Assembly: GCA_000442015.1 (NCBI GenBank)
Contig: KE560384.1
Span: 62,001 to 126,000 of the forward strand
Length of the DNA stretch: 64,000 nt
Direction of reading: 5' to 3'
Source of the DNA: Rozella allomycis CSF55
Lineage: Eukaryota
The notes under the pieces were generated by a model. It had not been told where the DNA came from, did not search any database, and worked only from the letters and a program-made list of their open reading frames with translations. Positions 8,877 to 59,702 of the stretch are shown one piece after another (the stretch's first letter is position 1; every line of letters begins with the position of its first letter). The position numbers were made by a program, and so were the translations under genes.

Positions 8877-10942
8877 ATGAGCAATAGTTTCTTTACTACA
8901 TGGAATTCATCGTGGACAGGTGGATTTTCACAGGGCAACGATGAAGATGATATTTTGGAAGATGAAAATGCAGAATACCAAGTAGGAGACACAAAAATAA
9001 CTTAATAAGAATTTTTGGAACTTTAAAGATTCTATATTATTTGCGATAGACTGTAACAAGGAGATGCAAGAGAAGGGATTTGTGTTGAATGCGATAAAGT
9101 GTGCGAGATCAGTATTGGAGAGTAAAATAATTAGCAGCGAAAATGATGTTGTTGGGATTTTGTTATATAATACGAAACAGACGAGGAATGTGTCGCAATT
9201 TCCATTGATTTATATGTTCCAGGATATGGACCAACCGGATGCGCAAAGGATTATGGAGTTGGAAAAGATGGAAAAGGATTTAGAGAATGGACAATTAAAT
9301 GTTACAGAATCATGTCAAGATGACCAAATGGTGTCTTATCAAGACTTGTTTTGGATTTGTTCAACGATATTCTCACAGAAAGCCCACAAGATGGGATCTA
9401 AGAGAATATTTTTGATAACAAATGAAGATCATCCGCATGCAACAAATCCAGCTCTTCAAACGAGTGCTTTAAGAAGAGCAAAAGTATTTTAATTGAAAAA
9501 GTATTTTTTAGGATTTGAATGAATTGGGGATTTCAATTGAACTCTTCATGTTTAATAAAGCGAATAAAAATTTTGATTTAAGTTTATTTTATAAAAATGT
9601 CGTTGAAGAGGAAGACATTCAAAATGCAGAATCAAAGTTTGAAGAATTGATGGTTCGAATTAGAAGAAAGGAAACTAAAAAGAGACCCTTGCAAAAAATA
9701 TTGTTTGGTTTGGGAGAAAATTTTAATATTTCTCTCAAAGTGTAATATTTTTAATAAATTTGTTATAGTTTTTTACTTTTCAGCCCAGCAAGAAAAGGAA
9801 ATCACGTTTACTTGGATTCAAGAACAAACAATGAAGTCAATGTCATGACAGAATACATTTGTAAAGATTCTGCATCAAATTTATTGCCTTCTGACATTAA
9901 AAACTATTTCGAATATGGAGGCGAAAAGGCAATCTTCAATAAAGACGAACTTTTGAAAATTAAGAAATTTGGCCCTGCTGGTAAAGCAAACAAAATTTCT
10001 TTCAAAAGGTTTAACTTTACTGGGCTTTAAACCAAAAGAAAGATTAAAATTAAAATACAACTTGAAAAATTCATATTTTATTTATCCAGATGACTCTCAA
10101 GTTAAACAAAGTTCTCTCTTCTTTTCTCATTTCCTTGATAAATTGGAAGCCAAGGGAAAAATCGCCATTTGTCGCTACATTGCTAGGGACTACAGCAAAC
10201 CATCAATCGTTGCTCTTTTACCACAAAAAGAACAATTTGATGAGAATGGAATTCAAATTAAACCTCCAGGGGCTCATTTAATAACTCTTCCATTTGCTGA
10301 TGATTTAAGATCTTTGCCAAACGATTCAATCCAAAAAGGTAATCTGAAATTTCTCAAATCAATCAGCCAATCACGATCAAGTTGATAAAGCAAAAGAAAT
10401 CGTTGCAAAGTTGACTCTTCATGGTGGTTTCAATTATGATAACTTTGAAAATCCATCAATTCAAAAGCATTATGCTGTCCTTCAAGCCTTGGCTCTCGAC
10501 AGAGAAAAATTGGAAGACTTCAATGATAACACAATTCCAAAATATGANTCAATGATAACACTATTCCAAAATATGAACAAATGGATAAAAGAATTTCTTC
10601 TCTCGTAGAAGAATTCAACACTTTAACTGGCTTGTCTAATATTCCCAACGAAGAAAAATTTAAAGCTACCACAAAGAAAAGATCGGCCAATGAAGAATCC
10701 AAAACAACCAAAAAGAAAAAGGCCGAAACTAATGATGAACCCGAAGAAAATGTTTCAATTGACGAAATTGTTAAATCTGCACATGCAAAGGGAACAGTAA
10801 TTTGATCACACTTTTGTTTCTTTAGTTGTCTAAATTGACCATTCCGAGTCTCAAAGAATATTTGGCGCATGTTGGGGTAAAACCCAAAAAATTGAGAAAA
10901 GCCGATTTGTTGGAACAAGTGGAAGAGCTTTTATCGCAATAA
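8877..10942 (+). CDS. KU70: Ku70 NHEJ DNA-end binding protein, 7 exons
   Basis: vWA DSILFAIDC, KRIFLITNEDHP, LTLLGFKP, FIYPDD, LPFADDLR, FENPSIQKHY, C-terminal SAP-like exon; 27-29 nt introns; assembly duplication at N10548. Confidence 0.95.
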
Positions 10943-15507: not shown

Positions 15508-16706
15508 TTATTTAAAATGTATATTAAATATTCCTGAATAGTAAAACATGGCAAGGAACCATAAAAAGAGAAGGAATATTCGAAGAATCAATTTTTGCAG
15601 AATCTTTCTCTCAACGTCTGTTTCAAAAATTAAACAAAAATTACCAGCAAAAGAATAAATAAATAAACTTGCATCTGCAGAGACACTCATTAGCTGATTA
15701 TCCAAACAATTGTATGCTAATGAAGTCACTGAAAAGGTATGGGCATTAAACCAACCATGTAAATACTATCATTTTAAACTGAAGATCCTACCTTTAGATT
15801 TTGGGAAAACAATTTAATTATTCCAGTGGAAAATCCTACGACGACGTAACCCTTAAATGCTAATATACAAGTTGCTGGCTTAACGTGAAGCTTTTTTCTT
15901 TTAACAAGCTTTAATGATGCATTATATTTCAAAAGATAAGAAACTTTCTTTGACACTTCGTTTTCTAAAACAAACAAATCTCCCTTGTCATTAAAGACTC
16001 CTGATCTAATCACGTGGCCGGGTGATGGAAGCAACGTGCTTGAAGGCTCCACTGGCTTTTCTTCTGGACTAAACTTTTCAAAAAAGAAAATTTGCTTTGA
16101 AGTTACTGCGACAAACTTTAAAATTTTATCAATTAATTTGTTTACGTCGTTTTCTTTGTTGAAAGAAATGTTGTAAATTTCCCCATCTTCAAAGGCAAAG
16201 TATGCCTTTTCTTGCCTTGATTTAGCATCCCATATTCGAATCTTTATGTTATTTTTGATTAATTCTTGCCTTTTTATCAATACCACAGGATAAGATATAT
16301 ATCATGTCAGTGGAATACACAAAACATTTCAAGTATGGATCTTGGGTATCGAAATCTCCTTTCCATGTTTCTTCCTTGATTCAAAAAAATCGCATTTAAT
16401 ATATTACGAATCATTTTTAAACTTTAATATTCCACAATCTTCATTAATACAGCATGCAATTTCTGGTTCCTCTGGGTGGGCAGCTACGCTCATTACAGCT
16501 TTTTTCTTTGTATCATGTTTTAGCTCCTCTATTATTTCACCATTCTTAATTTTGATTGTGGCCTGCAACTGAAAAACCAAAATTCTTACCAGTCCATTAA
16601 AAACTCCAGAGTTGACATTTCCGCCACCTCCCGAGACAACGAAACACTCCATAGGCTTTGAATAACAACAACTAAATAAAGGAAAGGATAGATTTTTGGT
16701 TTTCAT
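15508..16706 (-). CDS. SEC12: Sec12/PREB-like WD40 Sar1 GEF with C-terminal TM, multi-exon
   Basis: GGGGNVNSGVFN K-loop; DFDTQDPYLK...SCGIDKKIRIW; SVSAD; C-terminal TM; includes one GC-AG and one putative GT-TG intron. Confidence 0.8.
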
Positions 16707-16796
16707 TAACCAGTTCAAATGAGAAATTCAGAATACGGAATTTTAGGGTTAACTCAAGTTGTCATGCAAATCAAACTTTATTGTACCTTTACGATG

Positions 16797-18185
16797 TTAG
16801 TAGTAAATCTTAGCTTGTTTAAAAATCCTCTATATCTACATGTTCTCCCCAAAACGGCATTTTACTAATGCTATTGATTATTTCATGATCAGATGAGTCT
16901 TTGGGCATAAATGACCATAACAAAAGAAAGAGTTTTCTATAAGCCTTACAATGGCCGTTGGATCTGAGATCTTTTGGAATCAATGCGGTTGCGAATTTTT
17001 CAACGACGTGCTTCTTTAATCTAATTTCTTTGCTAATAATACATATTAAATGCTTGACTAATATATCCCAAAGATCTTTTCAGAGCAAATTCAAACGCTT
17101 ACCGCGCTTATGTCTCTGTGGAAATAGACTATTAAGATCAATGCCCTTCATGTCATCCAAGTCCAGAGGTATTTTTGGAAGCTGAATTGGTTCGAATAAT
17201 TCTATGCTTTATATTGTAACTTTTTACGTTCATAGTGATAATTGGAAAGGTAAAAGAGAATTGAATCAGCTACTGCTTTTAGCGAGCCTTGTATTTCATT
17301 ATTACTGCTTTCAAATTATATGAATTGTTACTTTAATATTTCAAGAATGAGGTATTCTTTTGTTGTTCCATTGTAAATGCTGCCTCCATCATAAAAATCC
17401 TCAATGAAGCCCATCAGATTTTGTAGCTTCTCGGGGTCAACTTTTATTTGATACGTATTTTCATGATCAGTGGATTTTAAGATTTGCTTTTGAATCATAC
17501 TGTCTTGTGCATCGTCGATCCTATCATTGTAAACCTTGATTTCCCCGCATTTCATATTTTCGCCAACTGTAGCTTCAACAGGTTTACAGTGTTTGCAATG
17601 AATATCTTGGTTTTCAATAAGTTCATGCATTTGATCTCCTTTAACATCAGTCCCCGTGTTCACAAGTTTGACTTTGTCCGTCATCATCCCTATATCCCTC
17701 ACACTTTTCTTTGTAATATCTGACATTGAAGTTTTGATATCCTTGTGCAGTATTTCCGTATTATTCTCTATCTTTTCAGTGTCGATTTCGGGATATATCA
17801 TGTCATGGAGATCAATCGGACAGACCAGAAACTTCTAAACAAATAATTTTGAAAATAATTACCTGAAAATACTCGATTTGTTTATCGAAAATATCGTTTT
17901 TACTTTCTTCTTTAACTTTTGACTGTACTCCTTTCATCATTAGTTGGTTTCGCTCATCAGCTACCGCCTTACGCTTTTCAATTTCTTTCAAATATTCCAT
18001 TTTATTGCGACTTATTTCTTCCAAACTATAAAGTTTTAAGTAAATATTTACAGTCTTGATTTCTGTTGATTGTTTTCATCCCTTTTCTGTGCAATGAAAC
18101 TTCTCTTCGATCGCCTCTAAGAGAAATAGGGAATAAAGTACAGTTTACTAATCTCTAGCTCTAAATGTTTGATCTCAAGATCCAT
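16797..18185 (-). CDS. Multi-exon protein of unknown function with N-terminal coiled coil; 3' end uncertain
   Basis: ORFs 17812-18024 and 17328-17801 and downstream frames joined by about 26-32 nt GT-AG introns. Confidence 0.45.
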
Positions 18186-20627: not shown

Positions 20628-23167
20628 TTATTTAAAGTAGTAGATTACATCGGTCGAGGTTACTTTGACATTTTTTAGGGAGGATTGCTGTTGCAGAAAG
20701 GAAGATTGAGATAAGAGCAGTAATTTATCAGCGTTGACAGATTTGAGATGTTCCACAATATCACTGCAAAATTCTTGATTATTTTTATCCATTAGGAATA
20801 TTTTTAAATTTGAATGACCGAGTGCTTCTTCTAATGTCCTAGAATAGCTCAGATTCCAAGCTACAATGTTCTTTGTAATTGACATTGTTTCGGCAGAAGG
20901 TGTTTCATAGCAAACAAAGTAATGCGCTTTAGATAAAAAGGCGAAATCAAGGACCAGATCAGTTACAGTTTTAGCCCTTTTGCTTTTTCGTTCAGACCCT
21001 GGCTGATAACTTGAATAATCAATTTCAGGAGTGGTTTCAATTTTGTTCCTTGAATGACTTAATTCTTGAAGTTCTTGAAAAGTGATGCATTCTATTGGAT
21101 TTCTATTGTAATAGACTTTAAGTATTCTTGGAAATCGTAGAGTAAAGAATTTGTTGGGTCTTTCTTTTGTAAATCCACTTCCTAAGAGTTCAAAAACGAG
21201 TGGAATTGAAAAAGTGACGTCTATTTTTGAGTTTATAAGATTTGTGATTTGATAGGAAACTTCCTTGTTGGGCAGATTGAGTCCATTGTGAAATTTGATG
21301 CTTGTGTTGTTTATTAAAGCAGAAATGGAACTTCTTTCATCTCTGGAGAGGCCCATTTCTACCGTAAAAACGATTGCGAAATTTGGACAAGAAGATATTT
21401 TATCCAATAATTCTTTTTTATTTGTTAAACACCCGACATGAAATATTTGAAACAAACCTGACGAATCAGCATTTGGAGCATATGAAGCTCCAACAATTGC
21501 AAAGTCACCAGTATCCCCATAACCGTCAATGTCTAAATAAAAATATACTAAATCCCCTACAATCCTTTTTGATTTTCCACCAATTAGTTCTATTGAAGGG
21601 TTTGTAGATCGAATCCAATGATTTTACAATGATTCCTTCTTCATTCTTTTGAATGTGTTCTTGAAAGACATTTCTCAATAAATCCAAATGATTTAATTTT
21701 GAGAAATCAATTATGAATGTTTTTGACAATTCACAATAATTAGGTATCGTTTGCACAACTTGCTCCAATTTAAGTCGGCGGTTTCGTAAGGTGCAATTAA
21801 GTAAACTTTCTCCATTCAAATACAAAATATCAAAAAATATTAAAATATAATGACGAATTCCATTTGTTACATCATTCGAATAAAATGATTTTCCTGGCGC
21901 CAAATCGGAAACGCCACCGAATGGTTCGATTGACTTAGTTCTCTCATTATAAACAAGAATTTCGGCCTCTAGAATAATTGATTCTATAGAATTGATTCTA
22001 GATTTTTCCTGCAAGCCTCTTTCTTTGATAAATTCAGGATCATGGCCAATTGACGCCCAAAGTAATCAAACTTGACAACATTAAAACAATTTTACTTGTG
22101 ACTTTTCAATCTATCAAATGTTGAATCTCTTTTGCTTTTGCTGAATATTTTTAACTTCTTTTTCCCTTCTTCAAACCATAAATGGGCTTGAACTCTTTTA
22201 AGGGCAAATGACATTCTCACCTTTCACCGTCATACTTTGTTTCAATCAAGCATTCTTGCCCCTGAAGTTTATTGGCAACGTATTCTAATGAATTGGGACG
22301 GCCGCATTGCATAATCCCGACATTCACACCCAATTCAGGATTAGAAAACTCTTTATTTAAATCAACGCTTTTATTTTGATCATATTCAAGGCCAATATCT
22401 TTGAACTTTTGAATACACATGCATGCGACTTTTAAATCATTCTTAATAGAATATATTGAAGAAAACATGGCATGGAAGTTATTCATGAAGGGTCTACAAT
22501 CTTCCATGTTAATTCTTAGATCTTTAAGTATAATTCTAATAAGCCACTTGATCTCATTCCCTGTTGATTTCTTTTCACATCCAAAATTTCACAATTACCA
22601 CAAACAAGTCTTTCAGGATTTCAATTTGTGATCGATGATTCTTCAACGTCACAAAATCATCCTTTGACACTTATTTAGAATTATTTTTTATGTATTACAT
22701 TTTGATCGATCATTCCAAGAGTATGCAAGCTGCAGTTCATCCAGCAAATCGTTTACATCCTTCACCGATATGCTAGACGATGGAGTTTCCTACTCTTAAA
22801 ATTTAAAGGTTCATACTATTATTTCTCTTTCTACTATGCTCCCCAAGTCACCTTGCATCCCTGCATCCAATCGCCACTCTAAGATTGCTCGCCCTCTCTC
22901 GGTATTCTCAAGATTAAATATATTAACAATAAAACTGCACAGTTTATTTTCCCTTAATCCATATTTGGAAGGGTCTTCAAATGGAACTAATAGTCGAAAC
23001 AGTCGATAAACTGAATCGACTTTTTCAAACTGTTCAAACCAACTTGAAATACAATCATTTAACACTTGGCTTTTTTCTTTAGCATTTTTTATAGATTTAA
23101 TCATGATGATTTTCTCAAAAAGTGAACATACAAAACCAAAGGGAGCACTGTCTGATGAAGAGAACAT
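20628..23167 (-). CDS. ATP-dependent DNA ligase (ligase IV-like family), 7 exons
   Basis: EIKWLIRIILKDL, motif I KYDGER, FSKSKRDST, FFDILYLNG, EEGIIVK, WWKIKKDY, FTLRFPRI. Confidence 0.9.
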
Positions 23168-31850: not shown

Positions 31851-33598
31851 ATGGATCCTTGGTCTCAAACTCAGAGTCCGTTTGTGCAGTCTCCATCTAG
31901 TATATTTTCTAGTATCCATTTAATGATATTGTTTTAGGATCTGATCTACTTTTGGAATCTGCGTATTCATATGCAAATCCCACATATGGACCCAGCATTC
32001 CCAAGGAAGGATTACTTCAGCTGTTGAGAGTGGCAAACATTACTAATGAACAAATTAACGAAGTATATTATTTAATAAAACAGAAATAGATCTTTAGAAC
32101 TGTCATATCTGATGAATATGCCATTTTGAAAGATCATTTGATGACGTGCATGCAGCTTGTTGCATTAGCTCAACAAAACCGAGAAATCAGCATGGATGAA
32201 ATTTCTAGGGCGACAGCAGAAGGAAATGATTTGATACCAGTCTTAAAAATTGAAGTAAGTGTTTGCGATAATATTTGTAGGAGAATGATAAATATGATGC
32301 GGTGGCTATTAATAATGACGAGTTGAATTTTCCGACTCCAAATCCAATGGACAAGAATACATATTTTGAGGCATCTGAGATTAGAGTTAAGATGATGCCC
32401 GAGAAGAGTGGACTTGTTTTTAAATATGTCACATATGAACTAGAAAGCAGCGTAATTCTTTTTGGTTGAAACAATTACAGTCATTGAAAAGCGCAGTAAT
32501 GAGAAGATATAGCGACTTTGATTCATTACAGCAACTTTTGATTAAAAAGTACCCATTTAGAATTATTCCAGCGATGCCACCAAAGAAAATTACTGGTAAC
32601 ATTTTGTATTTAATTTTGTGAGCAAATATCGATGAAAAGTTTTTAGAGACTAGGTGCAAGGGTCTAACGAGGTTTATCAATTTAGTTGCAAATCACCCGG
32701 TTCTTAAAACTGATGAAATATTTATTGATTTCATGACTAATCAACAAGTACAAAACGATTTTATTTTACACGAGGGGTTCCAAAAGCTGAATACGACAGA
32801 AGAAGAGTTTGATGCTTACAGGGACACATTTGGAATATTCAATTCAAGTTTACCTTTAGATATTGATGAAAAATTGGATCAAATAAAAACAAGGGTTCTT
32901 GAGATGAGAGATGAATATTCAATCATGATTGATTCCATAAATGAAATGCAGATATATCATTTGAACATGTCAAACACAATGTCTTCTCTATCTACTGCCT
33001 TAATTCCTGTTGAAAGTCGCACCAATTGTTGGAATTCAGACTGCAGTGAATGTTCAACGTTGCATGAAACAAAGAAGCTTCTCGGTAAGACATGCAGCTC
33101 TTTAAGCCTTCAATACAATGAGCTTCATTCAAGAGAACAATTTGAAACTTTTCAAGTATTTTTGAAATTCAATGAAACAATCTCTTCATTTTTGGTACCC
33201 TTGCACTTTCAATGTCATTCAGGATTTGTTTGAACGTTCACAAAGAGTTATGATTTCGGATTTTGAAGGAATTCAACGAAGAATTTCACAAAATCAACAA
33301 AAGTTGGAAAAATTGGGGTCAAAATCAGTCATTTCTTCAAAGGATGTGGAGAAAATATCATTAGCTATTGAAACGGTATGAAATTTCTAAAACTTTAATT
33401 AAGGATCAAAAAGAAATTGAATATCATCGAAATAGAAATAATTTTGCTAAATATTGCATTTGGAATGAAGCGATCTATTTTCATAAACAAAAAGATCTCA
33501 TTTCGCAAGCCTTTGTTGCAATGGTAAATCTTCAACGGCATTATTCAGCCTTTTTCAATGACAATTGGGTTCTTTTGTCTGAGAAATTACAAAAATAG
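31851..33598 (+). CDS. MVP1: Sorting nexin SNX8/Mvp1 (PX-BAR), 8 exons
   Basis: [54 protein letters not shown]. Confidence 0.85.
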
Positions 33599-41100: not shown

Positions 41101-42063
41101 TGATTCAATATCAAGCGTCAATTTATTTGGATTCACCATAAAAGAAGCCAAAAGATCAACAATTAAGTTATTCAACCAATTGGACAACCCAGGCAACTAC
41201 ATTTCTCTCCAATCGTTCGCTTACATCCATAATATCCAGAGATTTCAGTGGCTTCAACACAAAATCTATTTGTGGATTCTCCATAAACACTAAATCTATC
41301 AATTTAACAAACGGCGACGCTGACATCAACTTTAATTGGATTCTAAGTTTTCCTGAAAAGTAAATTTCTTTCAACATAATAGGAATATCAACTCCAACAA
41401 CACCCTTTCCAAATCTTGCTGTCAATACAACTTTAGAGTTCCAAGCAAACGATCTTTTTCTCTTTGTAGGTTCATCATCGTTTGGTGTAAAATTAACATC
41501 CAGATCTAAATGCTCATCAACACAAATTAACAATTCTTACAACAATATCTCCATCAGTCTTTGGATAAACTCTAACTCCCTCTATCCTAGGAGACTCGCT
41601 TCCCAATGTGAATTCAGTCAACTTTATACTTTCCTGAACATCAATCAATCAATTTCATACAATCAGATTAGGTTTATTATCTTCAAGAATAAAATTAACA
41701 CTCTCTACAATCGACGTCGACAATACAGGCTCATAAACTGTCCAAAATTTCTCCATTAAATGATTAAACCATTCCGCACTCTCATTATGCGACTCCAACT
41801 GATTTAACCTCGTCATAATCCATTACCCTTTCAATGGCAAGATCTTTTTCAACAGCTACTCTTATTACCGTTTTCAGTCTCCTCTCTTTTCTCTTGTACG
41901 CAAATATCAACAAGAAACAACACACAAAAATATACGCGATCGAAAATCCAAATCTTCCCAAATAGTAAATCAATATTGACATCAACATAAATTGCAATGA
42001 GATAGAAGGAATCTTTGTTTCTTTTTGCCCCTCGTCATACACTTCTGCTTCCAAATTGTCCAT
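38115..42063 (-). CDS. TCB: Tricalbin / extended synaptotagmin (TM, SMP, multiple C2), about 13 exons
   Basis: ESAEWFNHLMEKFW, FTLGSESPRI, IDFVLKPL, AIGVLKMTI, repeated NPxWNETF C2 motifs. Confidence 0.92.
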
Positions 42064-43564: not shown

Positions 43565-46440
43565 ATGCAATTGACATTGTTAGCTGTCATTATTCAGTTC
43601 CTAATTTGTGTTAGCAAAGCAAATTCTTTGAATTCTTGCAATGTACATCCGCATAGTAGACATGATTGTGGATACGTAGGCATCAGCCCAGATGAATGTG
43701 AAGCCTTGAATTGTTGCTGGGCTCCATTGCTCACAACAAATCATCCATGGTGTTTTCATAGAAATAAGAATTGTGATGGATACCGCCTAAGCAAGTTGTG
43801 GGAGAGCAAGCACTCAATCGAGGCAAAGTTGGTCGCAATCAATCCTGACTGTTTGAAATTTGGAAAGATCGTTAAAAAATTGAAACTTCTTGTTGATTTT
43901 GAGGACAAGGATAGAATTCATGTAAAGATTGGTGACTGGAAGGGAGAAAGATACCAAGTCCCAGAATCTGTTTTTCCAAGGCCAAAAAGTCAAACTTTTG
44001 ATTTCTTACGTTTTTCAAAGGATAATAGCAAGATAAACTCAAAAATGGTGATTTTTAAAGAAAACAAGGAATATAGAATTGAGATTTTGACTGACCCTTT
44101 TCGATTTAAGATCATTAGAAAAGCAACAATGGAAACGATATTTGAATCTAAAGAAGAATTCATTTTTGAAGAAACTTACATTGAAATGTCCACAAAAATA
44201 AGAGCGGGATCACATTTGTATGGATTAGGAGAAATAGCTAGAAACTTTATAGTGAAAGATAATTCCATTTCAACACTTTTCACGAGAGATGCAGCGACAC
44301 CAGAAAATGAAAATTTGTATGGCTCCCATCCATTTTATCTTGAAATGAATAAAGGAAGATCACATGGAGTGGTAAAATATGTTTCACCTTGTAAAATAGT
44401 TTCTACTGAATAGCAATGCCATGGATGTTATTAAGACCTCTACTTCTTTGACATATAAATTGGTCGGCGGGATTCTTGATTTTTATATCTTCATGGGTCC
44501 TTTGCCAACTGATGTGATTTCACAGTATTGGCAAGTTATTGGAGCGCCGGCTATGATACCTTATTGGGCTCTTGGTTTTCATCAATGCAGATATGGTTAC
44601 AAAACTATTTGGGAAGTAATGGAAGTTGTTGATAACTTTGAAAAACATCAAATTCCTTTGGAAACAATGTGGGTTGACATAGAGTACATTATTTGTCTTC
44701 ACATAACAATAGATACATGGATGGATACAGAGATTTCACTTTCGATCCTCAAAGATACCCCGTTCAAGTTGTTCGTAAATTTGTTGATAAATTACATTCA
44801 AATGGACAAAAGTTTACCTTAATAGTTGACCCTGGTATTAAATTGGATTTGCCTCAAAATTAGGTATTAAAATTGACCCCGGTTTAAAATCATACGACAA
44901 TGGAATAGAGAAAGATATTTTCCTTAAAAATAACAATGGAGACAACTTGATTGGAAAAGTTTGGCCCGGGCTTGTACATTTTCNTTGGAAAAGTTTGGCC
45001 TGGATTTGTACATTTTCCAGATTTCTTTCACCCCAAAGCTCAAGAATGGTGGAACGAATGCTTTGCCGAATTTTATGATCACGTTCCAGTTGATGGTACA
45101 TGGATTGATATGAATGGTAAATATTGAACTGTTATTTAAGAAAGAATTGGCAAACTTTTGTGATGGCGATTGTTTCAATCCTCCAGTGGATTCTGAAAGC
45201 ATCAACTTTACTCCATATAGAATTCACAATGGATGGGCCAGATTACCGCTATTCACAAAAACCACCCCAATGGATGCAGTTCATTATGGGGGTCATTTAG
45301 AATTTGATGTTCATAATTTGTTTGGTTTAATGGAAGCCAAAGCTACTTTTAAAATGTCAACCACATTTCATCCAAACAAAAGACCCTTCATTCTTTCAAG
45401 GTCAACTTTTCCTGGTACTTATATTTTCATAATTAACAATAGGTTCTGGTAAATATTCATATCATTGGACTGGCGATAATTGGTCTACGTGGCGCCAAAT
45501 GCATCTTTCAATTCCAGCAATATTAAACTTTAACATGTTTGGGATTCCAATGGTGGGTGCCGACATTTGCGGATTCAATGGTCAAACCACTGAAAATCTT
45601 TGTGCAAGATGGATGGCTTTAGGTGCCTTTTATCCATTTTCCAGAAATCACAATTCAATTGACGCTGAATCTCAAGAACCTTATCTATGGCCAATCGTTT
45701 CAAAAGTTTCTAAAAAGTATTTACGTTTAAGATACAAGTTATTGCCTTATTGGTACACCCTGTTTTACGAATCATCTGAGTTTAAAAAGGTTGTAATTCA
45801 ACCCTTGTTCTTTGATTTCCCAAATGATGAAATCTCTCTTTCTATAGACACGCAATTCATGTTAGGAAGCAGTTTGATGGTTTCACCTGTACTAAAAGAC
45901 TCGGAAAGCGTTAACGTATATTTTCCAAAAGCTAAATGGTACGCGTTGGAAAGTTTTGAGGCTATTCCATCCGATGGATACCATCAAATACATGCATCAA
46001 TTGATTACCTCCCTGTCTACATTAAAGGGGGTCGTATAGTACCAATTCAAGGATTCGCCATGGTCACTGAGAAAGCAAGGAAACAACCATTTCATTTGTT
46101 AATTGCATTAAGTGAAAATGGTAAGGCATCTGGATCATTGTACATTGATGACGGAGAATCATTGAATATTAAATCACATTATTCTTACATTCATTTCAGT
46201 GCGAACATTAAAGATAATTATGGATCGATTTCATCAAAAGGAAAGTTTGATTACGCAGCACCTCAAATATGCAGCGTAAAAATACTTGGAATGAAATGGA
46301 AACCTGCAAAAATACAAATCAGTGGCAATGAAATAACCGAAAGAAATTCTTCATATGATTCAACCAAGGGTGTATTGCAAATTGAAAACATTGAATTGCC
46401 GACTTCAAGCGAATTTATTATCCACTTGATCAACTTTTAA
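43565..46440 (+). CDS. Secreted/lysosomal GH31 alpha-glucosidase with N-terminal trefoil domain, 6 exons
   Basis: Signal peptide; trefoil RHDCGY...C...CCW...[22 protein letters not shown] nucleophile; HWTGDN; GADICGF. Confidence 0.95.
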
Positions 46441-46459
46441 TAAAAATTGCTTAAATATT

Positions 46460-47303
46460 CTAGGAGGTTTTAATGTATTCATATGCAGACATAGAAATTG
46501 CTGCTGAAGGAACAAGCCAGAATGCTCTCAAGAGTGAACCATTCAACCATTCTCTTCCAGAAACATTTCTAAAAATACTTTGACTGAATCTAATTAGCGA
46601 CTTGGTGTCTTCTTGCAACTGCCAGCGTGTTTTTATAATATCCAAGGGTCCAGATACGATTGAGGCCAAAAAGCATGCTAGCGATGACGATAATAATGTT
46701 CCTGTCAGGGTTGACCTATCTTAACATTCATCATCCAATGTTGTACCACCCCTTGCTTTTTCGTACACAGTAAAATATATCATTGAATGAGGAACATAAA
46801 CTATCAGTGAAATTCCATATCCCTTAAAGAACCCTTTAAGTCCATTTCGCTGCCATACATCTTTAATGACAGACATGGTAGAAGAAGATTTTGCCTGGAC
46901 CTGCATGTGCTGTTTTATGACATCCATGGGAGTCCACAATAATCCAGATACTATCTGTGGTATTTTAATTCTAGATTTTTTACTTCAGCTGCCACAGCTG
47001 ACAAACAATGTGTAACAGAATTATCGTTGAAACTCTTTTTTGTTTTCAAAAACTTTTTGGTTTCCTCATACGTTAATAAATAAGATGACAAAGCCGGTGA
47101 TGTGAATACAAGTGAGGCGAATAGTCCACTGTACAAATTTTTCACATTCAAGGGTTTTCCGGATTGAACAGATACTTTAACCGTGTCTTTAAAAGTTAGA
47201 TAATAAATTTACCTATCGGGTGAGTAATCGCTCTTGATATCAATCCGCTGAACGATGATGCGATCGCCACATTCCAAAAATCGGCATCATCTGCATTAGG
47301 CAT
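46460..47303 (-). CDS. Mitochondrial carrier family protein, 4 exons
   Basis: Three Px[D/E]xxK signatures: PIDTVK, PMDVIK, PLDIIK. Confidence 0.9.
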
Positions 47304-49958: not shown

Positions 49959-52255
49959 ATGCGTTGGACTCTTTTGGAGCCTGTACATTTTAAAAAGGAA
50001 GAAATAACTGCCAGACATGGTCACTCTTGCATTTTTGCTAGTAAGAAGGGACGTGGAGAAGCGGTTGTTCCAGCAATGTATAGTTTCTTTGGCGCAGTTG
50101 AAAATGCCCTATTTAACGAAGTAGTATTGTATGATATCAGTAAACTAAATCTGATAAAAATATAGATAAAAATAATGCAGATATTATTTTGGAGATAGCT
50201 GAAGATGATAAAGTCGTGTTTCCTGTGTCTTGTTGTGCGATTTGCAAAGATGATAATGAGGTTATATATTTGTTTGGAGGTATTTCGTCTACAGAGGAAC
50301 GAGATGAGATTGTGCGTCAGGTATGAAATTGAAGGTTGCATGAATAGTTTGTGCAGTTTGATATTGAAACGAAGAGTTTTAAGAGTGTTGAATGGACAGG
50401 AGAATGCCCGCCACATCTTTTGGGTGCAAAGATGAATTTTGTTAAAGAAGAGAGAAAGATTTATTTGTTTGGAGGATATCGCGATGATTTCAAATTTTCG
50501 AATGATTTGTATTCTTTTGATTTGGAGACTAATAAATGGGAGCTGGTAGAATGCAATGGAATGAAGCCAAGAGAAAGAGAATCGCATTCTATGGAGTATT
50601 GGGAGTGTTCGAAGCCAATTACCCTTTTAAAGGACAATGAAGAAGAGGAAATTGAGAATGGGAAATTTTTGGTAGTTTTTGGCGGATTGACTGAAGGCCA
50701 TCGATTAAACGACGTTCAATTTTATAATCTAAGTAAGAAATAAATAATGAGAAAATAAAGATAATAAAACTTGGTATCAAGCAAGAACGCCCACTGCGAA
50801 TGAAGTTACGGGCAGAAGTCAACATTCTGCATTTATTTACAAGGATAAAATTTACATTTTATTTGGATGGGAATATTCCACAGAAGCTCAATCGATGCCG
50901 TTAAGAGAATTGAATGAAGAGAGAACTGTTGCTGAGAGCAAGAATGTGTATTCAAAACTGAAAACACATTCTAAATTTGCCAAATCTATTTTAATGTATG
51001 ATATATTTTCAAACGAATGGACGAAAAAGGAATTCCATGGTGGCATAGTTCCAACGCCCAGGGTTGGTCATGGGGCCGCCCAATTTGAAGATAAAATTTA
51101 TGTCTTTGGTGGAAGAGATGGACCAAAGAGACAACATTGTTTGTCTGATTTTTGGATGTTAGAGTTGGAAGCGACACAAGATGAGAAACCAAGACTTGAA
51201 TACATTGGCAAAAGAAAATGTGCTAGTGAAGCACCAATAGCTGTTTCGAATGATGCTAATGAAAATGAAGTTCCAGAAAAGAAAAAGAGAAAATCAACAG
51301 CGACAGCTCCAAGTACGCCTGCAAAGAAGAGGAGATCTGTGGTACCAACGATTGCTGTTGTTACTCCTCGACAAAAGGACAAGTTGAATGTGATTGATTA
51401 TGATGAAAACATTAGAATTGATTTTAATAAATGCTATGATCCAAATAATTTCCATAAATCATTAGATGAATTGACGATTGGACAACGAGTAGAAATTGTA
51501 AGAATTATTTTGTAAATTTCAAAAGTTTGATGAAGCGTCAGGAAAATTTTATTATGGAAGATTTATTTGTAGAAAAGAAGGCAAAACAAAGAAAACTTCT
51601 GGATTATTTCATTATGAAGGTTGGGCTCATACAATGGATGAATCTATTTCGTTGAATGACATTCCAAGAAGAGTTAGAAAGTTATCAGAGAGATATCAAG
51701 AATGGCTTCAAGAGAATTTGAATAAACAAAAAGAAGGAAATTTTCACGAAATTTTGGATGTCGCAGATTTTTCTGATAAAATTTTTGATGAACGGCCATA
51801 TTTTGGAAATAAAGTAAATTTTAAACTTTCAATTGAAACAATAGGGACCTGAACCTGAAGAAAATTATACTTTGGAATCTTTAGCGAAATCTAAACATTA
51901 CAAGAATCTTTTTCAAACTAAGAAAGAAGAAAGTAGTGAAGGAAGCGTTTTAAGCGACATCCCATCAATGAAAGAAGATGAAGTGAAAGATATTTCATTA
52001 TCAACAGTTGAAATCGAAGAAATTGAAGTAAGCGAAGCAAAAGAGAGCATTGAAAGCGCTCAAAGTGAACAAGAGGAAAATATTCAAATTATTGAGAGTG
52101 TTCAAGAGGAAACTATAAATGATATTTCTATTTCTGAACAACAATCAAACGAATCAAATAAAGAAAATCAAGAAATCGTAGAAATGAAGAATGAAGATGC
52201 TAATGATATTACAAATGATATTACAACAATAACAACTGCAATGGATGTTGAATAA
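49959..52255 (+). CDS. Kelch-repeat protein with NLS, Tudor-knot/chromo-barrel-like region and acidic tail, 6 exons
   Basis: Repeated IYLFGG/VVFGG/PRVGH kelch motifs; KKKRK; IGQRVEIFD...FHYEGW..TMDE. Confidence 0.8.
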
Positions 52256-52256
52256 A

Positions 52257-53009
52257 TTAATCTTTCATTTTATTTTTGTTCATTTTGTCCATCCATTCAT
52301 TATACAGAATTGCAAGTTCAGGTGAACCCCCAATTGCTTCCTTTGTCAATTGCAACTCTTCTAATCTTCTATTTATATCTTCAAAATCTTTCGTTATCTT
52401 CTTATGAAATGGTGACTCAATTTCAGTTGTTTCTACAGCCTTTGATTCCACCAGTATCCTCTGACTGTTCTTCAAACAGTGAATAGCCTCATTGTACAAT
52501 TGGACTTGCTGAAGAAGACTCCCGATATATTTCCATCCTTGATAACATGTTCTTCTTTCATCTAAATAGCCAGTTATATACATCAATGCATCTTATGATT
52601 AAACTCAATCTATATTTACTCTTGTAATCTTTAATCTTATGAAACGCTTGGAAAAGAAGTAACAAACTACCTGCATCTCTCGTCTTTAGTGAAATCTATA
52701 ATCAAACTCAATACACATTACAAGCTCATTCGCAACCAACTTTATATTCTCACACTCTTCAAGTTTCATAAAACACCTCAATCTTAAATCCACAATTTCC
52801 TTCTTCCCTTTTATATTCTCGCATTCCAAAAGGCATTTCCTATACTCTCCTCTATAATAATACTCATCTGCCCGGTATTTCGCCATCGGCAGTGTCTTGC
52901 AATACTCTTTATCATCAAAAGACGAATCCTTAAACCACTGCTACACATATTTATATATTCTTACATTTTCTGTACGGTAAAAGAATGAATACTCTGAATC
53001 TTGTGGCAT
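52257..53009 (-). CDS. TPR-like protein resembling the C8orf76 family, 4 exons
   Basis: WFKD...KYRADEYYYRGEYRKCL; TPR-like helices; only in-frame ATG of the first exon is at 53009. Confidence 0.6.
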
Positions 53010-54516
53010 GGGCGAAAAACTTTACTTGGTTCGTTTCGTACAACGACATGCTGAATTTCGATTAGCTGAATTTGAAGCTCTGTGCAAATTATTTGATATA
53101 AAATACAAGGCGCACACGGAATACACTGATCTTGTATAGTTATTTTTTGAAAATGATGTAGAGTCCGTTTTGGATTGTTTCTTTCAGATCTGAAGATGAT
53201 ATTAGAAAAATATTGTCGAGGTCTTTTTTGATAAAGTATATAGATATGGTTTGAACTAGTAGATGTGTGTTGGAGCATTATGCGTGCAGCGAACAATCGT
53301 TAGATCATTTGGCAGAATTAGTTAAAGATATACCGCAAGATGTTTTCGTAAGATTATTTGGTTCAATCGAGTCAGGAAGTTTATAGAAACGATACATTTA
53401 AATTTGTTATAGACACTTTTGCTACCTCAATGTCTGGCAAGGAAAAGATTGACACTATAGAAAAGTTTGCTTATCTGCCATTTGACGGGGACATTGACTT
53501 GAAAAATCCAAAGAATACTTTTCACGTGATAATCGATAACAGACACACAATAGAAAAGGAACCAAGAGCGTTCTATTTTGGAAGATGGATTGGAGATGGA
53601 AATAGAGAGTTTATCGATATCTATAATGTCAAAAAGAGAAAATACATTGGCACTACAACAATGGACGCTGAGCTGTCGCTGATAATGTCAAATATGGCAC
53701 TAGTCAAGAAGGGGTCTCTGGTTTACGATCCATTTGTTGGCACTGGTAATTTATAATAATTGATATTGTGGGCAGCTTTCTAGTTACTTCATCTTGCTTT
53801 GGGTCTTATTCATTCGGTTCAGATATTGATGGGCGGCAGATTAGAGGCAAAGATGGAAGTATGTTTAATGATTCACATTTAATAGAAAAATCTTTGAAAT
53901 CTAATATAGCACAGTACAAGCTACAAAATAGAATTCTGGGTACAGTTGTTTGTGATATTACTCAACATCCATTTAGGCCCGATGGTTTCCGTTTCGATGC
54001 AATTATCACTGATCGTAAGTATTATTTTTTCTATTCAAAAGCTCCTTACGGTGTTAGAGCAGGCGCGAAAAAGATTATGATGAAGGAGGGCGGTTTCTTC
54101 AAAAATACTGAAGAGTAAAAATGAAATATTTTCTATTAAATAGCGGTAAAAGTTTTTATCCTGCAACCATTCCTTACGAACTGCCAGATGTTATTTACGA
54201 TTTACTAAATTTTTCTTCAGTATATCTTGAAATTGGTGGCAGGCTGGTGTACTGGTTACCAGTAATTGATGATGAAGAGTAAATTTATTGCAATGGGTGT
54301 AATAGGGAAAATGATTTAAAAGAGCCTCCTAATCATCCATGTTTTGACATGATCTCAAAATGCCCTCAAATATTCGGCGGCTGGCGAAGGATTCTTGTTA
54401 CAATGGAGAAAAAGTGCGATCCTGAATCTATAGACTTTAATATCAAAAAAGATCATTTGGTGGAACCTTTTAGAAATCGGTTTTTCACGAAAATGAAATT
54501 AAACAGCGAAGCATAA
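53008..54516 (+). CDS. TRM11: tRNA m2G10 methyltransferase Trm11, 9 exons
   Basis: YLVRF...HAEFRLAE, KRKYIGTTTMDAELS, DPFVGTGS, GSDID, DAIITDPPYGVRAG, GGRLVYWLP. Confidence 0.96.
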
Positions 54517-54527
54517 TATAAATAAAT

Positions 54528-54580
54528 TGATTAAATTAAATGATTAAGTTAAGTGATTAAAGTAAATGATTAAATTGAAT
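54528..54580. repeat. 13-bp AT-rich tandem repeat (tgattaa(a/g)ttaa(a/g), about 4 units) between convergent genes
   Basis: tgattaaattaaa tgattaagttaag tgattaaagtaaa tgattaaattgaa. Confidence 0.7.
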
Positions 54581-54620
54581 TATTGAATGAAATTTATGAC
54601 TCGCGATAAAAACAATATGT

Positions 54621-55727
54621 TCAAAAGTCTGGCACTGTATTGATGAATTGTGGCGATTTTAATCTAAAATACACCATTGTTAACAAACCTAGGAGAATAA
54701 CACCACCGACAAACGAATAGATAATTTTTGGCATTAAGTTTGACACATCCTCGCGATGAGCCAGTTCTTTCATGTCTAAATATGTTCTCTTCATAAATTC
54801 TGGATAATTTTCGTTGACTTCATACTCATAAATGCTGCTTTTGAGATCGTCAGGAGTTATATCATATAAAAGAGAATTTACATAGTTCTGGAACGTTGTT
54901 GCAAAACTTAATGAGGCGAATAGAGTATTCACAGTTAACTGGTTTTGAAAATAGTAATTTACGTATTCAATTACTGAAGAAAGTACTTCTTTTTCTATCT
55001 TTCCAGCCGATTCTTCAACGGACAATTTAAGCATAAGAACAAATGTACTTTCGACTATATCGCACACTGATGAAATGAAGGGACTTTCGGGTACTTCTGA
55101 ATATGCTGGAGGTTTTATTAAAGCATTCTTAAGAATCTTATGCTCGTATACAGCTTTTAAAAGATGAACAAATGGTAATTCTTTAGTGTTGCGTAAAATA
55201 TCAAAAACTGAATTGTATTCATAATCTTTCGCGTGTCTTTTCACCATAATTGGTATGAGCTTCGAGTTATCTGTCATCATAGAAGCAAGCAGCATAATAT
55301 CATCATTGCTAATTTTTTCTTTTTTGGACAAAGTTCCACTGGGTACTTTATACGACCCGTTATCTTTCAATCCCAATAAATTTAGATGATTTCGAGAATT
55401 TTCATTAGGTGCAATCGCAAACAAAAAGTCGACAAAAAGATTCTTATTTGCCTCACTCAGCGAACTCTTCAGTATCACTTTCAAAGTCGAAGCAGACGAA
55501 ATAAACTTAAATACGTGCTCTTCAATTTCATAATTCTTGGTTAGTTCATTAAATGCTTTATGAAACGCAAAATCAGATAATCTTGAAATCAAGTTGTCGT
55601 TTAAATATTCGATGTTCAGATTATCTATCCTTGACATAAGATTTACACCGAGTTCATTATATCGTGCTGTATCACATAAATACAACGAAAAAAACCAAAA
55701 GAAAAGTAGTGCACTTGAAAATTTCAT
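54621..55727 (-). CDS. Type I membrane protein of unknown function; intronless
   Basis: Signal peptide MKFSSALLFFWFFSLYLC from ATG 55727; C-terminal TM IIYSFVGGVILLGLLTMVYF. Confidence 0.75.
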   Translation of the reverse strand: MKFSSALLFFWFFSLYLCDTARYNELGVNLMSRIDNLNIEYLNDNLISRLSDFAFHKAFNELTKNYEIEEHVFKFISSASTLKVILKSSLSEANKNLFVDFLFAIAPNENSRNHLNLLGLKDNGSYKVPSGTLSKKEKISNDDIMLLASMMTDNSKLIPIMVKRHAKDYEYNSVFDILRNTKELPFVHLLKAVYEHKILKNALIKPPAYSEVPESPFISSVCDIVESTFVLMLKLSVEESAGKIEKEVLSSVIEYVNYYFQNQLTVNTLFASLSFATTFQNYVNSLLYDITPDDLKSSIYEYEVNENYPEFMKRTYLDMKELAHREDVSNLMPKIIYSFVGGVILLGLLTMVYFRLKSPQFINTVPDF

Positions 55728-56020
55728 CAGTGGCTCCAATGGTGGCTGTGTATAGCTATATTTAAAATGTCGCGTTTTTGATGTATTAATAGTATTCTTC
55801 ATAACAAACTTATTAAAGTATTTTCTGCAATTACCTTGGTATATTTCACAGCCTTTATTTGCACCTTCTGAATTGAGACTTGCCTTGGCATTTCCTGCTT
55901 CATTGTACCAAATATAAGTACGAATATTGAAATATTTCAAATATTTTCTTCCTTTCCTTTACATTTTCATTTGTTGCAAGTTTCTTTCCTGTGTTTTTTT
56001 ACGAAAAATCAAATTTTGTG

Positions 56021-56736: not shown

Positions 56737-59702
56737 TTATTTCTGTACTTCGTAGCCAGCATAGCCATGGGGATTTGCTTCTCTTATGATACGAAGAAAA
56801 ACATCTTCCAATGTTGAATGAGAAATACCCCACGCTTTAATTAGTCCTAATCAATACTATCAATCTTCTTATACCGTCTGGATTGGTTTCAAGATAATCT
56901 ACAAATTTGGGAATATATGGAACTTCATTCGGTGAGATGTTGTAAATTAATGATCCTGCTGTTTCATCTTCTAATTTGGCTTCTCTCATCCTTGCAGATA
57001 CCTGATCTTTAACTTTATTTGAGTTTTTAGGGGAAATAACTAGAGAAATTCGGTACCCTGAACCAAACCTTGCCTTGAGATTTATAGATGACCCTAAAGC
57101 CCGGATACGACCATGAGCCATGATCGCAATTTTATCACCCAAAACATCGGCTTCTTCCATTGAATGTGTAGTTAAAATTACAGCCCTGTCTTTTTTAAAC
57201 TCTTCAATGAATGTCCAAACATGTCGTCTATTTAATGGATCCATTCCAGTTGTGGGTTCATCCTACAGAATTGTTAATTATCATTAAATACCATGTAAAC
57301 AACGTGAGGATCACCTAGCGTACTTAATATCAAAGATAATCGTCGTTTCATTCCTCCGCTGAAAGTTTTAACATGAGCGTTCACAACCTATTAAAATATT
57401 TACTACAAAAATACTTTATCCAGTTTGACCATGCTTATCCTTTCTTTCATCGTTTTTCTAACTTTGCTCAAAGAAAGGTTCTTTATTCCCGCGTAAAGCT
57501 CAACATGTTCCCAGGGTGTTAAATCTTCAAACAAAATATCAAACTTGGTTATCAAATTTGTTTGAATGATTACTTGAGGACAAACTCCCATAATTTCACG
57601 TATTTTATGCATTTCAAATCTAACACTAAAGCCAAAAATAAATGCATCCCCGTCTGTTAGTCGAACCGCCCCTGCAAGAATGTTTTGGAGAGTGCTCTCT
57701 TAATATCAATCAGTAAGATTTACTTTGCCAGCTCCATTTTGTCCCAAAAGAGCCAATAATTTCCCATTTTCAAGAGTTAAACAAACATGATTCACAGCTA
57801 GTTTGGATTTAACCGATGAAAATATTCCAGATGAATAAACTTTCTTCAAATTTGTTATTCTTATTGCAAATAGCTTTCTCAAGTCAAATGCCTCGTCTCG
57901 TTCTTTTTCAACGTCAACATCCTCGTTGTATGGCTATATTTTGGCTTTAACGATTATACTATTTTTATTTTTTGACTATTTTTTAATTGTCTCATTGCTC
58001 TGGAATGGGTGAATGCATGAAATCCATAATAAGCTGGGTTCAAGAAAAACAGCGGACCTTTTCTATTTCCGATCGCATCAGGGAAAACTCTATCAAAATA
58101 TCTATCAAAATTCTGTCATGAAATTACAATGCGAGAATAAAATAAATGCCTGACAATACAAATAGACATACAAGTGACTCTATTGTTGGAGGAATGTATG
58201 GTGAGTCTCCATAATTCGGGATATAAACTTCAGGCAAAGGAATAAAAAGATCTTTCATCCTGAATCCAGGTCCAGCTACTATCATTTCACTAATTGAGTA
58301 TTTGAACAATCTATTACGTCACTGGATCTAACGGTCCCTGAGCCAATTGTTTTATATCTGTAGTTATTTTTCCAAAGTGAAAAAATGGAATGGCGTAGAA
58401 AAGGTACTTAATGATACTTGGAGTTATTTTTGACCACCATAGGTATGCCAAGTATGTTTCAGAGAATATTATGGACGTGAAAATCAACCCCACAATGAAA
58501 ACTCCAATCCCACAAAGCAAAGCTGTTTTAATTTTTAAGCAGAAAGTAGTTATCAAATAGCCCAAATTTATCATGGCTAAATTGAATGCAAAGAGTGTAA
58601 CAAAAATAACCTATCTTATACGCAGAAATATAGTACTATAAAATCTGTATTTCTGATTAAATCAAATTTAAAAATGTATCCCAATGCAATAGTGACTAGT
58701 CCGTTAATCGCCGCCAAGGTTGAATGGAAAAGCAGCCAACTCAGCCAGTAAGAAATGGACTATATCTATTATAACGTAAACCGCTACCTTCAGTCCCATC
58801 ATGTCCATACTAACTCTTGTCTTTCTATCTTTATCAAGCATGACATGGTTTATCAAAGCCATAAAAATAAACATAGATGCACTGTATGTAAACGATAGGA
58901 TAAATCTGGAAACAACTTGATCGGAATAACCCAAAGAGGGAATAACCGGCCAATCACGAACGGTCACATCGATATTCAATGGGTTGGAATTACCATCTCC
59001 ACTAGTTAGGACAGTAATGATTGCCTCATCTATTCCTCTGATCAAGGAGTGAAGAGATGATCCAAAAGAATCAATTGCATGTCCATCCGAACTCTTTTGG
59101 CGGACTAGTGTAGAGTTATACCAAATTAAATATTGAAAATTGGAACTATCTTGACTAAACGTAATTCCGAATTGGGTAATGTTCGGATTCACTAGAACGT
59201 ATTGGTAAAGAAATTGTTCATTTGGTACAGCCACAGCNNNNNNNNNNNNNNNNNNNNNNNNNNNNNNNNTCTATGAAAATTATGTATTTAATCTACTTGT
59301 CAATGGCGATGAATACAGCGATGTCGGGTTACCGCCAATACTCTGAAGTCTTGCGTTGTTCTTGGTTATGAAGGTTTGTATTATGTTGTCGTTTATTGAA
59401 GATTTTGGTGTGTACATTATGTCAATGCAGTTCCCCTTTTTCATAATCATTTAGGTTTTTACTGGACAGCTAATCAATGGGCTCAAAGAGCTCGAAGGCG
59501 GATTGTAATTGTATGTTTTAATCGCGTTACTTTCAATTGATTGTAATGACCAAAGAATGATGTATATTAGTGTGGGAGCTATAACCAATTGTACAATAGT
59601 GGCTTTCCAATGCCTCATCTAATATAAATTTGAATAAATATGTACAGCCAATATTATATTCTTTTTGAATAATACATATGTTTGCAAAAAATAGAGAAAC
59701 AT
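56737..59702 (-). CDS. Half-size ABCA-family transporter (one TMD + one NBD), about 14 exons, gap at 59238-59269
   Basis: QTYVLFKKN...RHWKAT; MMGLK..SYWLSW; LLGQNGAGKS; MGVCPQFDIL; FSGGMKRRLS; DEPTTGMDP; ILTTHSMEEAD; start may extend to about 59809. Confidence 0.92.

Follow-up and report, generated by a model that had tools for sequence, protein, structure and literature searches.

A putative GT-GG intron within motif I of the TRM11 gene of Rozella allomycis CSF55

We analyzed a stretch of 64,000 nucleotides (nt) from Rozella allomycis CSF55 (contig KE560384.1, positions 62,001 to 126,000 of the forward strand; hereafter the window, in whose coordinates all positions are given), and focused on the gene TRM11, which encodes a tRNA guanine-10 N2-methyltransferase and contains an intron that appears to end in GG. 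The window has a G+C content of approximately 34%, and the standard genetic code fits it, as reading through TAA and TAG hardly extends the open frames. TRM11 occupies positions 53008–54516 on the plus strand and consists of eight exons and seven introns, with the stop codon at 54514–54516. From the first to the seventh, the introns are 28, 27, 28, 26, 27, 29 and 27 nt long; six are of the form GTA..AG (intron 1, 53134–53161; intron 2, 53236–53262; intron 3, 53348–53375; intron 5, 54015–54041; intron 6, 54115–54143; intron 7, 54279–54305), and the fourth (53746–53771) is GT..GG.

The annotated TRM11 protein has 113 homologs (E ≤ 0.001), which are named tRNA (guanine(10)-N2)-methyltransferase, matches fungal Trm11 over its full length, and has precomputed Pfam matches to PF01170 (RMKL-like methyltransferase domain) and PF25904; a Pfam search with one exon alone gave a weak match to PF01170 (E 0.042). 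The translation of exon 4 matches two NCBI proteins from R. allomycis CSF55 with 100% identity. One of these (P0114, EPZ36996.1) equals the gene model with a 26-nt fourth intron at every residue except four, GSFL, and the other (P0001, RKP19237.1) represents a second TRM11 allele with three replacements. The motif IV of Trm11, DPPYG, is rejoined as D|PPYG across intron 5. The motif I, DPFxG[TS]GS[FIL]L, is whole only with the GT..GG junction and is lost under the 38-nt intron of the annotations. With that junction, the protein would be a standard member of the family (motif I DPFxGxGS, motif IV DPPY), whereas as annotated it lacks four motif-I residues. Intron 5 contains no in-frame stop codon, and its retention would add nine residues within motif IV without truncating the protein.

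Exon 4 (53376–53745) ends with GAT CCA TTT GTT GGC ACT G, which encodes DPFVGT and supplies the first base of a Gly codon. It is followed by GTAATTTATAATAATTGATATTGTGG (53746–53771, 26 nt, GTAATT...GTGG), whose 5΄ GTAA is canonical and whose last two bases, 53770 and 53771, are both G, so that the acceptor position –2 (53770) carries G in place of the expected A. When this piece is left in, the reading frame runs into TAA TAA. Its exact excision joins ...GGCACTG to GCAGCTTT and yields ...YDPFVGTGSFLVTSSCFGSYSFGSDIDGRQIRG, translated as DPFVGT-GSFL-VTSSCFGSYSFGSDIDGRQIRG, within an open frame of 438 amino acids (aa) in which exon 5 spans 53772–54014 (GSFLVTSS...AIITD). The same mRNA would also arise from GG..TG or TA..GG junctions, and the 5΄ end is canonical only with GT..GG.

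Two canonical acceptors can be reached from the same GT at this site (ALTERNATIVES). Splicing to the nearest, CAG (53773–53775), removes 30 nt, shifts the frame and gives an immediate stop (ACT G|CT TTC TAG), and splicing to TAG (53781–53783) removes 38 nt and stays in frame but deletes GSFL, leaving a protein of 434 aa that reads DPFVGTVTSS. The latter intron is adopted in both public annotations (P0114 and P0001), and GSFL is absent from both. Beyond these two acceptors, the next in-frame AG lies at 77 nt. The segment 53772–53783 (GC AGC TTT CTA G), which encodes (G)SFL of the S-adenosylmethionine (SAM)-binding motif I, is therefore exonic in the 26-nt model and intronic in the 38-nt model. 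A sequence-only reading of this stretch had pointed to a 26-nt piece running from GT to GG in an otherwise intact TRM11 gene, had stated that only this junction rebuilds the invariant motif, and had noted that use of CAG leads directly to a stop; our re-reading of the bases, the homologs and the 438-aa open frame bore out all of these points, including the exact coordinates. It had overlooked the in-frame canonical alternative of 38 nt.

We compared the junction with homologous proteins. In an alignment of fungi, a mite, a diatom and an MMETSP transcript (alignment A1), [GA]S[FIL]L was present at the junction in 18 of 18 homologs, and the annotated Rozella protein P0001 showed a gap of four residues. 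Exon 5 of the window begins with SFLVTSS, exactly in register with this alignment, in which the motif-I Ser of GSFL is at least 90% conserved. A metagenome scan with the same alignment returned 80 loci, and in 76 of these G-[SG]-F directly follows DPFxG[TS] in one frame, the motif being absent from any single frame in the remaining four. Among the 80 loci, identity did not exceed 49%; no close relative of Rozella is included, and an intron is seen at the site in none of them. A scan of metagenomes with P0114 yielded no relative either. Moreover, a profile search aligned the archaeal Trm11 structures 5E71 and 6ZXW, which read DPFMGAGGIL and DPMCGTGSFL, respectively, at this point; phmmer with P0114 against the PDB gave no match. 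Since [GA]S[FIL]L occurs in all 18 aligned homologs, the appearance of G-S-F-L directly after the junction is not a matter of chance, and its conservation in homologs, metagenomes and archaeal structures indicates that the 12 nt at 53772–53783 represent ancestral coding sequence. The base composition changes at the same point: intron 4 is 81% A+T, compared with an intron mean of 74%, and the following 12 nt are 50% A+T, compared with 63% in exons. Judged by homology and composition, excision of the 26 nt is what would make a working Trm11.

We then searched the window for GT..AG pieces of 22–34 nt (an upper bound set by design, with GT starts selected) flanked by open coding-like frames, and obtained 74 unambiguous introns. 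Lengths of 26–29 nt accounted for 58 of them, 30 nt for two and 31 nt for four, the range of 26–31 nt holding 64 of the 74. Accordingly, 26 nt is a common length and 30 nt a rare one, and 38 nt lies beyond the observed range, which the scan itself limits to 34 nt. The introns follow a 5΄ consensus of GTA(A) (A in 81% at position 3 and in 64% at position 4, n = 74) and a 3΄ consensus of [AT]AG, and 11 AGs that are passed over lie 2–5 nt before the inferred acceptor. In 65 of the introns, neither a shared branch-point motif nor a constant branch-point position could be discerned. Three longer candidates that were inspected (9981–10038, 32255–32322 and 58113–58159) each contain a canonical intron of 26–28 nt. 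Given the tight distribution at 26–29 nt, the lack of a branch-point motif and the way in which the inspected longer candidates resolve, length seems to be a large part of intron definition in Rozella. Intron 4 of TRM11 resembles the other introns in its 5΄ GTAATT, its 26 nt and its A+T content, but departs from them in its 3΄ end. The earlier suggestion that its acceptor is used constitutively and chosen by distance is conjectural; a choice by distance would fit the 58 of 74 introns at 26–29 nt. No paper on intron size or non-canonical splicing in Rozella was found by title or by the start of the abstract.

We also compared positions 51000–56000 with the contigs of three DNA sequencing runs (X1, X2 and X4) and one RNA run (X13). 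A contig of run X1, at a depth of approximately 264, showed no differences from the window over 53608–54102 (495 nt), which includes position 53770, and this contig alone accounted for the depth in those bins, so that X1 carries no second allele there. Immediately upstream, X1 departs from the window at six positions and is therefore not a mere copy of the assembly, although the X1 run may share material with it. Intron 4 is also covered by a contig of X2 (53163–54089, seven differences, four among those listed) and by one of X4 (91 differences over 4973 nt). The RNA run matched the region at only two places of 20–22 nt, and no joints were seen. The X1 contig makes an assembly error at 53770, for which the sequence-only reading had asked that raw reads be inspected, very unlikely.

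The alleles of TRM11 differ at at least 14 sites in the coding sequence, and the 14 listed are all exonic. Taken singly, 12 of the 14 listed sites are silent, and the other two, 53326 and 54437, cause K88N and F413S, respectively; when two linked pairs of sites are each counted as one event, approximately 11 synonymous events are obtained. Three residues out of 434 distinguish the two annotated alleles, and several of the silent changes fall downstream of intron 4, in the frame that is kept by either the 26- or the 38-nt splice. TRM11 has been under purifying selection between these alleles, and this argues against long-standing use of CAG. More generally, two alleles were observed at many sites of 52800–55800 in the public runs (for example, 54429–54480, at approximately 96 of a depth of 221 in X1). 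The window's alleles at 53221, 53290, 53326 and 53423 are absent from X1 and X2. In X4, the allele is not that of the window at 53326 and 53423, and no difference was observed at 53221 or 53290. The assembled sequence may combine haplotypes as a mosaic.

Other introns without a usable AG were sought by scanning the window for A+T-rich pieces of 24–31 nt that start with GT and are required to join coding frames. After weeding, two candidates were left, and not the three that would make up the four cases counted in the sequence-only reading; both start with GTAA, are 26–29 nt long and end in TG. The first is GTAATATATTAAATGCGATTTTTTTG (16382–16407, minus strand, 26 nt, GT..TG), located in a gene for a Sec12/PREB-like WD40 protein. 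The next AGs, at 33 and 37 nt, are both out of frame, and a GT..AT end at 29 nt would be equally in frame. The same gene contains a likely GC..AG intron, GCAAGAATTAATCAAAAATAACATAAAG (16242–16269, minus strand, 28 nt), whose removal gives ILSCGIDKK|IRIWDAKS; the public protein P0117 reads part of it as protein (QELIKNNIK). When both introns are removed, the translation reads ...DPYLKCFVYSTDMIYILSCGIDKKIRIWD, a WD repeat that is present in seven of seven aligned homologs and absent from the annotated P0117, which uses a 138-nt intron (16270–16407) instead. This GT..TG intron is a well-supported candidate. The second is GTAAAATTGTTTTAATGTTGTCAAGTTTG (22067–22095, minus strand, 29 nt, GT..TG), located in a DNA-ligase gene. 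Here, splicing to an AG at 25 nt would run into a stop, and the next in-frame AG lies at 77 nt. The sole ligase homolog found (P0116) aligns across the junction without a gap, whereas the annotated ligase (P0115) jumps from KYD to EAEIL and loses part of the catalytic core.

In all three candidates (TRM11, Sec12-like and ligase), G is kept at position –1, the change is at position –2, and an AG lies 4–7 nt away. No exonic in-frame stop or frameshift was met in the scans of the window, whose sensitivity to them is limited, and a complementary scan for non-GT donors in the window gave nothing convincing. Changes restricted to position –2, together with the lack of exonic decay, fit tolerated changes better than random decay. 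The public models at 16146–16727 (minus strand; P0117 and P0118) and 21529–22260 (minus strand; P0115) skip conserved segments, an entire WD repeat in the former and GER...IIL from the core of the ligase in the latter, and this seems to be due to the use of canonical splice sites only during annotation.

We propose, with roughly even credence, that 53746–53771 is a U2-type spliceosomal intron with a functional GG 3΄ splice site beside a nearby AG, probably sharing transcripts with CAG or TAG. The 5΄ site GTAATT would be used as in all other introns, and the 3΄ region would first be defined, probably with the help of the CAG located 4 nt downstream (30 nt from the 5΄ site). The exons would then be joined, during the second catalytic step, at a G-ending dinucleotide at the preferred distance of 26–29 nt from the 5΄ site. 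The outcome would be a useful share of in-frame mRNA, with some transcripts probably spliced to CAG (frameshift) or to TAG (loss of four residues). The site would resemble human TG-AG and GG acceptors, placed in an ultra-short intron whose geometry leaves little choice. We hold only tentatively, as a possibility short of probable, the broader idea that Rozella routinely splices a few percent of its 26–29 nt introns at GG or TG acceptors that are the only productive ones, the nearby AG serving as a mere landmark and position –2 being largely dispensable.

Ultra-short spliceosomal introns are found in Paramecium (approximately 25 nt), in the nucleomorphs of chlorarachniophytes (18–21 nt) and in dicyemids (approximately 26 nt); to our knowledge, these have been described as strictly GT-AG. 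Rozella resembles these systems in its very narrow range of intron lengths (26–29 nt) and its weak internal signals, both of which suggest that length is part of recognition. A closer parallel to the junction itself is an intron of human BANP, a conserved gene, which is described as a U2-type GT-GG intron that is conserved in vertebrates and has AG in fishes, in a report that also describes GT-TG introns (Parada et al. 2014, PMC4176328). Like intron 4 of TRM11, it combines a canonical GT 5΄ site with a GG 3΄ end; in contrast, the BANP junction, as presented in that report, is backed by cDNA and by conservation in vertebrates, whereas the Rozella site is known from genomic sequence, and the Rozella intron, at 26 nt, is far below vertebrate sizes. 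A second parallel is provided by 36 validated human TG acceptors, each of which, in the cases described, serves as an alternative to an AG no more than 28 nt away (Szafranski et al. 2007, PMC2374985). Rozella shares with these a normal 5΄ site, the terminal G, a non-A base at position –2 and AGs within 28 nt, at +4 (CAG) and +12 (TAG), and the idea, put forward in that report, that an AG defines the intron early and another site is chosen later would apply here as well. However, in the cases described there the human TG is always one of two alternatives, and the Rozella GG would be the sole site giving a working protein.

Several points weigh against use of the GG site. The canonical CAG is located merely 4 nt downstream, and the resulting length of 30 nt occurs among Rozella introns. 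Other G-ending dinucleotides end at positions 23, 25 and 27 of the intron, and a relaxed acceptor rule alone would be imprecise among such neighbors. The argument for the GG site is built from homology and composition, and that from purifying selection bears on it only if GG predates the alleles. One of the two supporting cases, the ligase gene, is ambiguous, since a canonical 77-nt intron would match the spacing of human LIG1. Trm11 is not known to be essential in yeast, and a broken copy of TRM11 could therefore persist. Moreover, in the human examples that Szafranski et al. 2007 (PMC2374985) present, AG>TG acceptor mutations activated neighboring AGs rather than the TG, and TG acceptors never served as the sole site.

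A rival explanation, left unweighed in the sequence-only reading, is that an ancestral AG has recently become GG in this lineage. Splicing would then go mainly to CAG (frameshift and stop) or the intron would be retained, and TRM11 would be a null or weak allele whose sequence has yet to decay. The CAG lies within the observed range of lengths (30 nt in 2/74 and 31 nt in 4/74), the human AG>TG mutants mentioned above behave in the same manner, the loss of Trm11 is tolerated in yeast, and intact GSFL codons would be expected if the change were recent. However, X1 holds only GG, at full depth, and thus no intact allele is present there. The approximately 11 synonymous against three replacement changes between the annotated alleles, some of them downstream of intron 4, also speak against this explanation, as do the three acceptor changes in the window, all at position –2 and none at –1, in scans that, at their limited sensitivity, met no exonic stop or frameshift. 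We therefore regard a recent lesion as unlikely, while considering it the most serious of the rival explanations.

We consider it improbable that the public annotation is right and that the Trm11 of Rozella simply lacks GSFL. The 38-nt GT..TAG intron (53746–53783) has canonical ends, is in frame and is used in two separately annotated alleles (P0114 and P0001). Nevertheless, it drops four residues of the SAM-binding loop that are found in 18 of 18 homologs, and the 12 nt concerned encode exactly G-S-F-L in frame with an exon-like composition. Its length exceeds the 26–31 nt of 64 of the 74 confident introns. Annotation pipelines are normally restricted to canonical sites, and conserved segments of the Sec12-like and ligase genes have likewise been lost from these annotations.

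Two further explanations are scarcely credible. Although the window is a draft containing 41 N, a sequencing error that conceals A at 53770 in an ordinary GT..AG intron conflicts with the G in the X1 contig (depth approximately 264, no differences over 495 nt) and with the avoidance of the 26-nt intron by two annotations. Junctions of the form TT..CAG (53750–53775, 26 nt, giving GTGNFLV) or TA..CAG (53747–53775, 29 nt, giving GTGFLV) are in frame and end in CAG, but they would need a non-GT 5΄ site beside a perfect GTAATT, when all 74 confident introns, in a set selected for GT, start with GT and 81% with GTA, and they would replace or delete a Ser whose conservation reaches at least 90%.

If the GG and TG sites are used, Rozella would provide a natural system for the study of acceptor choice in which the geometry of the spliceosome may pick the 3΄ site. 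The AG rule would then bend at a measurable rate, in 1 to 3 of roughly 75–100 introns in the window, and the current gene models of this reference genome of Cryptomycota would be wrong wherever non-AG acceptors occur. Conserved residues of TRM11 and of the Sec12-like gene are missing from both public annotations, and P0115, the only ligase annotation that was recovered, lacks part of the catalytic core; in comparisons across the microsporidia-Rozella lineage, such genes would then pass for divergent or defective. If the GG is instead a fresh lesion, it would represent an unremarkable early stage in the loss of a parasite gene.

Other classes of intron were considered for 53746–53771 and rejected. 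The 5΄ consensus of U12-type (minor) introns is [AG]TATCCTT, which the start of intron 4, GTAATTTA, does not match. The ciliate code, a Paramecium-type intron or an internal eliminated sequence is ruled out by the fit of the standard code and by the organism being a fungus, and no pair of TA dinucleotides lies 26 nt apart (TA..TA).

Three further pieces were discarded from the scan for non-AG introns: a canonical 28-nt GTAAGC..GTAG intron at 41197–41224 accounts for 41176–41200 (minus strand), 10339–10369 can be spliced in frame to a canonical CAG at 28 nt, and 46438–46463 is the end of a gene. Rfam and tRNA scans of the window gave no matches. The 41 N in the window comprise one gap of 32 N (59238–59269) and nine single Ns. 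At 18024–18051 (minus strand), a 26-nt GTAAAT..TATAG intron is out of frame with both flanks, and 25 or 28 nt would fit. This region includes 18027–18051, a further candidate from the scan for non-AG introns; an upstream exon too short to be noticed, or a further unusual junction, may account for the misfit.
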